Of a stretch of 64,000 nucleotides of DNA, positions 43,588-44,218 are shown piece by piece. The position numbers and the translations under genes were made by a program. The notes under the pieces are model-generated. The model searched no databases. It had not been told where the DNA came from and was given only the letters and a program-made list of their open reading frames with translations. This DNA comes from Eledone cirrhosa (taxonomy: Eukaryota), in assembly GCA_964016885.1 (NCBI GenBank), contig OZ024741.1, forward strand, positions 11,656,001-11,720,000, in the 5' to 3' direction. The first letter of the stretch is position 1, and each line of letters starts with the position of its first letter.

Positions 43588-44210
43588 ATGTGGTTTTTCA
43601 ACCCTTGTAATATTAGACACACGGTTTACTGTGTTTCTTACTGGATATATATTACTATTATACGGCTCAGTATTTTATACTTGGAGCTTAATAATTACAG
43701 GGTTTCAATTGGAGTTATTGACTCTAATTTTCATTTATATTTGTGCTCCCTCACAAGTTGAGCTTATTAAGTTGCGTGTGTTGGACTGTTATTTCTATCC
43801 AATACACGCTTACTACGTTTGACTAGCGGCGCACGGGGTGATAAATTCATCTTTCTGTGTGAACGTTGGTACATAGTGTTTGTCGCATTTAATCAGATTC
43901 TCTCGCTGATGATGCCCATGGATTATCTGTTGCAAACACACTCAGGGCGAAACAGATTAGGGATAATCTGTCCGAGAGATGTAATTGTTTTTGAGGCGGT
44001 TTGTATAATATAATATAATTTTATTTTATCATTCTGTCTGCTTCTTGGTTAAATATTTCAAACAAATGTGGTTTTTCAACCCTTGTAATATTAGACACAC
44101 GGTTTACTGTGTTTCTTACTGCATATATATTATTATTATACGGCTCAGTATTTTATACTTGGAGCTTAATAATTACAGGGTTTCAATTGGAGTTATTGAC
44201 TCTAATTTTC

Positions 44211-44218
<8 letters not shown>
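43588..44218 (+). mobile_element. Retrozyme/Penelope-pLTR-like partial tandem (family E): 478-bp unit plus a 153-bp repeat of its start, ending in (TA)n
   Basis: 43588-43740 is nearly identical to 44066-44218; the unit contains a complete HHR. Confidence 0.8.
43899..43979 (+). ncRNA. Canonical type-I hammerhead ribozyme (family E); predicted cleavage after C43972
   Basis: tctctcg-CTGATGA-tgccc...gggc-GAAA-cagatta/ggga/taatctg-TC-cgagaga; 7-bp stem I, 7-bp stem III, intact core, GUC triplet. Confidence 0.92.

Follow-up and report, generated by a model that had tools for sequence, protein, structure and literature searches.

Organization of the insertion

The window, i.e., the whole 64,000-nt stretch of DNA analysed here, carries a hammerhead-containing insertion located between a 5′-truncated LINE and a (TA)n microsatellite (Table 1). 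As the first-pass annotation had reported, a 153-bp direct repeat is present at a period of 478 bp: the segment 43588-43740 recurs at 44066-44218 with 151 of 153 positions identical, the two differences being located at 43644/44122 and 43655/44133. The right edge of the second repeat is fuzzy by a few bases, its final 7 nt (TTTATAT) blending into the (TA)n. Self-comparison of the whole 64-kb window revealed no copies of the unit beyond 43588-44218. The 478-nt unit has a GC content of 35% and is far more self-paired than shuffled sequence, both as a linear (z = -5.48) and as a circular molecule (z = -5.47). Its description as non-coding agrees with our Pfam search, which returned no match in any of the six frames translated through stops (E ≤ 0.1). 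Read in the register that we infer for the family, the copy begins with the final 63 nt of one unit, continues through a complete unit and closes with an extension of 90 nt.

Table 1. Coordinates of the insertion, its parts and its flanking sequences (positions in the window)
Feature	Position	Strand	Remarks
Whole insertion	43588..44218	+	631 nt, amounting to 1.32 units (non-coding, 478 nt each)
First 153-nt repeat copy	43588..43740	+	Left edge is the junction with a 5′-truncated LINE, not a family end
Second 153-nt repeat copy	44066..44218	+	2 differences; passes into (TA)n
One unit in the inferred family register	43651..44128	+	Closes at the dominant 3′ end; inferred from contig depth, cover and (TA)n junction
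Type I hammerhead	43899..43979	+	Predicted cut after C43972
Stem-loop with AC-rich 5′ arm	44093..44115	+	Directly upstream of the dominant 3′ end; predicted fold
ATATATAT	44123..44130	+	Sole run of at least 3 TA repeats detected in the unit; coincides with the inferred dominant 3′ end
Extension past the dominant 3′ end	44129..44218	+	90 nt, tail-like, head of the next unit; inferred
5′-truncated LINE (RVT_1 and zf-RVT)	41720..43587	-	Second of two tandem copies; adjoins the element head to head, separate from it
(TA)n microsatellite	44214..44341	.	Likely insertion target

The LINE on the left matches a second copy just to its left at 81%, and this alignment ends at 43587. The best-scoring relative of its protein is from Argonauta hians (66% identity), which points weakly to an octopod host. 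The two 5′-truncated minus-strand copies stand in tandem at 39243-43587, are 81% alike and each end in a GATA-like repeat; we take them to be Tx1/L1-like. No target-site duplication was found for either the element or the LINE, and no tRNA genes were found in the window. The left end of the insertion was probably set or trimmed at the LINE junction, and the copy may once have been longer. Since this end is a junction with a 5′-truncated LINE, the length of 1.3 units cannot be read as the stop point of a reverse transcriptase, and its earlier interpretation as the trace of reverse transcription around a circle is not sustained by a copy with such a left end and no target-site duplication. The figure of 1.3 units is thus partly accidental.

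A type I hammerhead with an extra nucleotide

The insertion contains a single hammerhead, positioned outside of the 153-nt repeat. Stem I has 7 bp (43899-905/43973-979) and leads into the core sequence CUGAUGA (43906-912); stem II has 4 bp (43914-917/43945-948) and a 27-nt loop II, and is followed by the core sequence GAAA (43949-952). Stem III has 8 bp if the A15.1-U16.1 pair is included (7 bp beyond it) and a 4-nt loop, GGGA, at 43960-43963. The cleavage site is GUC, with a predicted cleavage position 3′ of C43972. An extra U (U43913) is located between A9 and G10.1, and the G10.1-C11.1 pair corresponds to G43914-C43948. An extra nucleotide at 9/10.1 and a G10.1-C11.1 pair are among the listed features of PLE hammerheads (PMC4209133), and a viroid hammerhead is described as tolerating an extra U at 9/10.1 and as cleaving faster with U there (PMC3705267).

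When the 20-kb non-satellite part of the window was simulated 500 times with a first-order Markov model and both strands were scanned, no equally strong motif occurred. At gathering score, Rfam detected no hammerhead in the window, and over 43500-44300 at E ≤ 10 it returned only microsatellite matches and no hammerhead. The hammerhead recognized in the first-pass annotation is real and of type I, with its two long stems, CUGAUGA/GAAA core and GUC site, but the epithet 'textbook' does not suit a motif with an extra U43913, a 27-nt loop II and no Rfam hammerhead match even at E ≤ 10.

The minimum-energy structure of the isolated motif is the hammerhead. When the unit in its inferred register, or the entire copy, is folded, the hammerhead comes out 2 kcal/mol less stable than the minimum-energy structure; in these contexts stem III has a predicted probability of 0.96, and stems I and II a predicted probability of about 0.1 (0.57 and 0.41, respectively, in the register 43588-44065). 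Stem III is predicted to be long enough for cleavage as a monomer, in line with what had been proposed; this prediction is based on its 8 bp and on the folding of the isolated motif.

Release of a unit-length RNA is stated to need two hammerheads (bioRxiv 10.64898/2026.07.22.740005). Since there is only one at this locus, release by double cleavage is impossible here, and the locus cannot be the source of a 478-nt circle, as had been envisaged, because both ends cannot be cut. A transcript of this copy would be cut once at most, so that the copy is likely a dead-end product and no source of circles.

A dispersed family in public sequencing runs

Contigs of four public runs (X1, X4, X5 and X6, among nine runs listed; library type off record) were aligned to 43665-44142, a one-unit permutation that places both repeat edges and the cut site internally. 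X1 yielded 367 contigs that cover 30 of 30 bins, with similarities from more than 99% to under 90%, and X4, X5 and X6 yielded 9, 1 and 14 contigs, respectively; together, the four runs carry three organism labels. In total, 26 of 401 contig pieces are listed. The junction 43740/41 is crossed by X1 record 1 (depth 107), and the junction 44065/66 by X1 record 8, X4 record 15 and X6 record 18. Contigs thus span both junctions of the unit, which indicates that in the family the end of the unit is joined head to tail to its beginning. No contig in X1, X4, X5 or X6 spans the whole unit or two hammerheads. A joint labelled '478 back' was considered as a sign of multimers and discarded, as it falls within the repeated segment and is hence uninformative. 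The element is a member of a diverse, dispersed, multi-copy family.

The hammerhead appears to be kept in these copies. Among the 40 of 64 substitution rows listed, eight substitutions fall in the hammerhead; all eight affect either the extra nucleotide or one of loops II and III, and the core and stems are unchanged; the extra U varies to A in other copies of the family. One loose-end consensus (17 of 78 loose-end rows listed) has a change in stem I, which would yield a U-G pair. Loop III, GGGA here, is pyrimidine-rich in several copies and there close to the reverse complement of the GGGA loop, with the stem kept, a change that is likely a hairpin-loop inversion.

The unchanged core and stems among the rows listed agree with the earlier expectation that copies elsewhere would conserve the hammerhead, and speak against a plain local duplication. 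The insertion could in principle be a local DNA duplication, or an assembly artefact, of a chance hammerhead-like sequence, given that short-read assemblies are weak near microsatellites and that the window contains N gaps. However, its two repeats differ at 2 sites, both unit junctions are spanned by contigs of public runs, and the strength of the motif was reached in none of the 500 simulations. We consider this explanation highly improbable.

A variant contig of 287 nt in X6 (record 18) has a depth of 246, compared to 2-13 for the other X6 pieces listed. It aligns at 43818-44087, through the cut site, and has four differences with zero depth in X1. The 9 loose bases on its right-hand side, behind 44087, correspond exactly to 43778-786, a joint that would give a unit of ~310 nt; they also fit the local sequence if three A-to-G changes are allowed. 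With its library type off record, the depth of this contig is no evidence of expression; in the boldest reading of the family (see below), it may represent a plentiful circle of ~310 nt, shortened relative to the unit.

Scans of metagenomes with the exact pattern gave 0 loci, and pattern scans of viral contigs and of prokaryote genomes gave 0 each. Five metagenome loci obtained with a looser pattern were rejected as homologues, as their match to the element extends over no more than 19 nt. One metagenome contig of 1,423 nt (L001), unrelated to the element, has a 186-nt terminal repeat, a hammerhead-core-like motif on the minus strand (1202-1245) and no frame of at least 120 aa.

Where the copies of the family end

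The summed depth in X1 is 911 at 43809-24, about 11,000 at 43937-52 and 43985-44000, and 23,988 at 44081-96; it then falls to 9,325 and to 2,278 at 44129-42, with 2,067-4,298 in the continuation at 43665-43744. These values are for X1 alone and sum overlapping contigs, so that they do not equal copy number, and the profile could be imitated by a larger, related family that has only 44033-44112 in common with the element. The climb toward a position near 44125 is ~25-fold and is followed by a collapse that is located at 44097-44142. In X4, cover does not extend past 44114; in X6, one contig among those listed passes into (TA)n behind 44128, at the ATATATAT run of the unit. No sustained depth step is visible in X1 at the cut site. 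Taken together, these data suggest that the dominant 3′ end is located close to 44125, some 150 nt beyond the cut, with 5′ truncation as PLEs leave. Freely permuted ends, as the first-pass annotation had expected, are not seen, the X1 depth marking one dominant 3′ end. The stem-loop directly upstream of this end is a candidate start signal for reverse transcription, by likeness to the anole element (PMC11167929).

Fixed LTR-like ends, which had been named as an observation that would overturn the retrozyme-like interpretation, were not found, as X1 has no depth step at 44066 (22,229 to 23,785) or at 43740 (2,180 to 2,971), i.e., at either edge of the 153-nt repeats. The repeat-internal-repeat arrangement, in which a TG...CA frame can be drawn (TG at 43589, CA at 43732-733), is what one would see in an LTR-type miniature element (a TRIM or a plant-type LTR retrozyme) with 153-nt LTRs. 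However, the hammerhead is of type I and lies outside of the repeats, a TGG primer site and a polypurine tract are absent next to the repeats on both strands, as is a target duplication, and we find this possibility scarcely credible. On the basis of the junction read-through, the depth at the repeat edges and the missing PBS (primer-binding site), PPT (polypurine tract) and target duplication, we rejected both the LTR-type and the artefact readings.

The depth profile also bears on whether the insertion is a remnant of an autonomous PLE, consisting of a pseudo-LTR and 5′ region, in which case the family would be made up mostly of 5′-truncated 3′ ends and the closed 478-nt unit would be a minor deletion product. 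Depth at the 3′ end exceeds that of the sequence beyond by a factor of ~6-10, like ordinary truncated PLE ends, the hammerhead has the PLE-type extra nucleotide, and further PLE-type hammerhead fragments are present in the window. On the other hand, the unit junction is read through in three runs with two organism labels, X1 cover carries on upstream of the hammerhead into the unit's own sequence (30 of 30 bins), and none of the six frames holds a coding remnant. Such an origin therefore appears unlikely to us.

The single dominant 3′ end and the junction with the LINE on the left, together with the presence of one hammerhead only at the locus, are difficult to reconcile with a classical rolling-circle retrozyme, whose monomers would be cut at C43972 and ligated into a 478-nt circle, with reverse transcription starting at arbitrary positions and recording 1.3 turns in this copy. 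The weak in-context folding of the hammerhead (2 kcal/mol above the minimum, stems I and II at ~0.1) points in the same direction, as does the report that eight of nine predicted Xenopus retrozyme dimers were uncleaved in vitro (bioRxiv 10.64898/2026.07.22.740005). Such a model would fit the predicted monomer competence of the hammerhead and the folding of the unit well above shuffles (z about -5.5); furthermore, the 3′ end of this copy (44218) differs from the dominant one, the X5 contig departs from the unit at a third place (43715 = 44193), and comparable coral and mussel repeats are described as accumulating as circles (PMC7229834). We regard it as quite improbable on balance.

Comparison with known hammerhead-bearing elements

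The locus resembles metazoan non-LTR retrozymes in having a non-coding, AT-rich and self-paired unit of a few hundred nucleotides in which a type I hammerhead with a stable helix III is embedded (PMC7229834; bioRxiv 10.64898/2026.07.22.740005). As described for those families, the units are in head-to-tail order and LTR, PBS and PPT are absent, and solo 'monomer' copies occur within the families. At 478 nt, the unit is slightly longer than the 150-450 bp of one description (PMC7229834) and within the 51-972 bp of the other (bioRxiv 10.64898/2026.07.22.740005). Active copies are recognized in the latter preprint by two or more successive units that each carry a complete hammerhead, whereas the present locus has one hammerhead. 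Other differences from these retrozymes, known here from sequence, are the PLE-type extra nucleotide and the 27-nt loop II. In the same preprint (Li, Clavereau and Pollet, 2026), animal retrozymes are argued to be derivatives of PLE pseudo-LTRs.

The hammerheads of Penelope/Poseidon and Neptune pseudo-LTRs share with the present motif the extra nucleotide at 9/10.1, the G10.1-C11.1 pair and the partial tandem arrangement (PMC4209133; PMC11167929; PMC8557442), and the template of the anole Poseidon element has the same extra U ahead of a GCC/GGC stem (PMC11167929). Copies truncated on their 5′ side or arranged as partial tandems, a one-sided extension and insertion into (TA)n are described as habits of PLEs (Craig et al., 2021; PMC8557442). 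With moderate confidence, the family likewise shows 5′ truncation toward a favoured 3′ end, situated downstream of the ribozyme; it also shares the (TA)n target and an extension past the main end. The main end lies ~150 nt past the cut here versus 85-92 nt in the anole element (PMC11167929), and the extension past the dominant end has 90 nt here versus a PLE tail of 30-40 nt (PMC8557442; PMC11167929). The 8-bp helix III resembles the large helix III of fungal and protist PLEs, unlike the minimal palindromic one of metazoan PLEs (PMC4209133), and the element has no ORF, unlike autonomous PLEs.

Plant LTR retrozymes (PMC4918200) are similar to the element in being non-autonomous and hammerhead-bearing and in having terminal direct repeats, but they are described with a type III hammerhead inside each LTR, a PBS, a PPT and a 4-bp target duplication, none of which was found here. 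Considering its single hammerhead, its 8-bp helix III and its 90-nt extension, we class the element as a monomer-class, retrozyme-like repeat of PLE type.

Hammerhead repeats of this kind have already been described in corals, mussels, amphibians and many other animals, so that one more copy is ordinary. Some value lies in the combination of a PLE-type core with a PLE-like preferred end and with a ribozyme for which cleavage as a monomer is predicted; in such a family it could be tested directly whether the template is circular or is uncut linear RNA. The identity of the autonomous mobilizer of animal retrozymes and the role of the hammerhead in PLE transposition are left open in the portions of the cited papers used here (PMC7229834; PMC11167929; bioRxiv 10.64898/2026.07.22.740005). 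At the level of titles and abstracts, we found no description of an octopus or cephalopod hammerhead or retrozyme family in the literature; supplements could list one. The giant-squid genome paper gives 235 Hammerhead_1 matches, which appear there as a count without further analysis.

Proposed origin and mode of copying

We propose, with a probability of roughly 70%, that the insertion is a non-autonomous, retrozyme-like repeat with a 478-nt unit and a type I hammerhead, derived from a Penelope pseudo-LTR and copied by a PLE enzyme into (TA)n. A partial-tandem origin of pseudo-LTR type had been mentioned as an alternative in the first-pass annotation, and it is this alternative that the PLE signature of the core, the preferred 3′ end and the (TA)n target support. 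No RT or GIY-YIG frame linked to the element was found in the window, and the loose ends of the contigs are too short to tell.

According to this proposal, tandem or partial-tandem copies would be transcribed into RNA of more than unit length. A PLE protein with RT and GIY-YIG domains would nick AT-rich DNA and initiate reverse transcription inside this RNA, mostly near 44125, ~150 nt past the ribozyme site, and for the present copy 90 nt further on. Synthesis would then go back through the uncut ribozyme site and mostly halt early, producing 5′-truncated copies; in this copy it would have exceeded one full unit, with the left end fixed or trimmed at the LINE junction. Purified Poseidon protein has been reported to nick AT-rich DNA and to start reverse transcription in the RNA 85-92 nt past the hammerhead cut, and to use uncut RNA in vitro (Frangieh et al., 2024; PMC11167929).

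Position C43972 is read through in this copy and in others, so that the template must have been intact there; it would have been a linear tandem left uncut or a circle formed by re-ligation. The preferred end does not decide between these templates: PLE reverse transcriptase is described as starting inside its RNA (PMC11167929), so that a preferred end is compatible with a circular template, and internal initiation works on linear or circular RNA. The predicted monomer competence of stem III would favour a circle, whereas the weak predicted stems I and II in context and the eight of nine uncleaved Xenopus dimers favour uncut linear RNA. We lean slightly toward the uncut linear tandem, the re-ligated circle having a little less than an even chance.

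In a bolder version of the proposal, the family would still connect Penelope pseudo-LTRs with circular retrozymes today: a PLE-core hammerhead that has acquired a monomer-active stem III would cut the tandem transcripts, re-ligated circles would be the sole surviving templates, and the PLE enzyme would start at a fixed internal position of the circle. If this were true, the fixed end would be a genomic footprint of PLE machinery mobilizing animal retrozyme circles. We consider this version doubtful.

Other hammerheads and repeats in the window

Four further type I hammerheads that pass the descriptor, at 14832, 37646, 28941 and 34404, have a short palindromic stem III of PLE type (expected number, 0.076 per 20 kb) and count in favour of the proposed PLE origin. 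Three of the four have an inverted partner, and two of these three are located within (TA)n; an inverted-partner layout with (TA)n is described for PLEs (PMC8557442). The segment 37502-37779 is an inverted pair (81%) that looks like an inverted PLE pseudo-LTR; the minimal type I hammerhead in it has its core at 37646, a palindromic stem III and a cut position after 37724. The segments 28837-29183 and 34299-34647 are near-identical fold-back elements (94% and 97%) within a long (TA)n array, each containing one minus-strand type I hammerhead 41-43 nt from a TA run. The short-stem-III hammerhead at 14832-14876 passes the descriptor, and a degenerate hammerhead-like motif at 46221-46290 fails it; both are followed by a TA-rich run, and no Pfam match was found upstream of either.

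Broken plus-strand frames are present at 16241-18592 and presumably correspond, judging by eye, to a LINE of RTE type. A small fold-back element with (TA)n on both sides occurs in two copies (15381-15575 and 47420-47603), and a 130-bp inverted repeat at 46505-46772 has arms that are 95% complementary and 8 nt apart. Long satellites occupy 255-11114 (572 copies of a 19-bp unit) and 47886-64000 (731 copies of a 22-bp unit).
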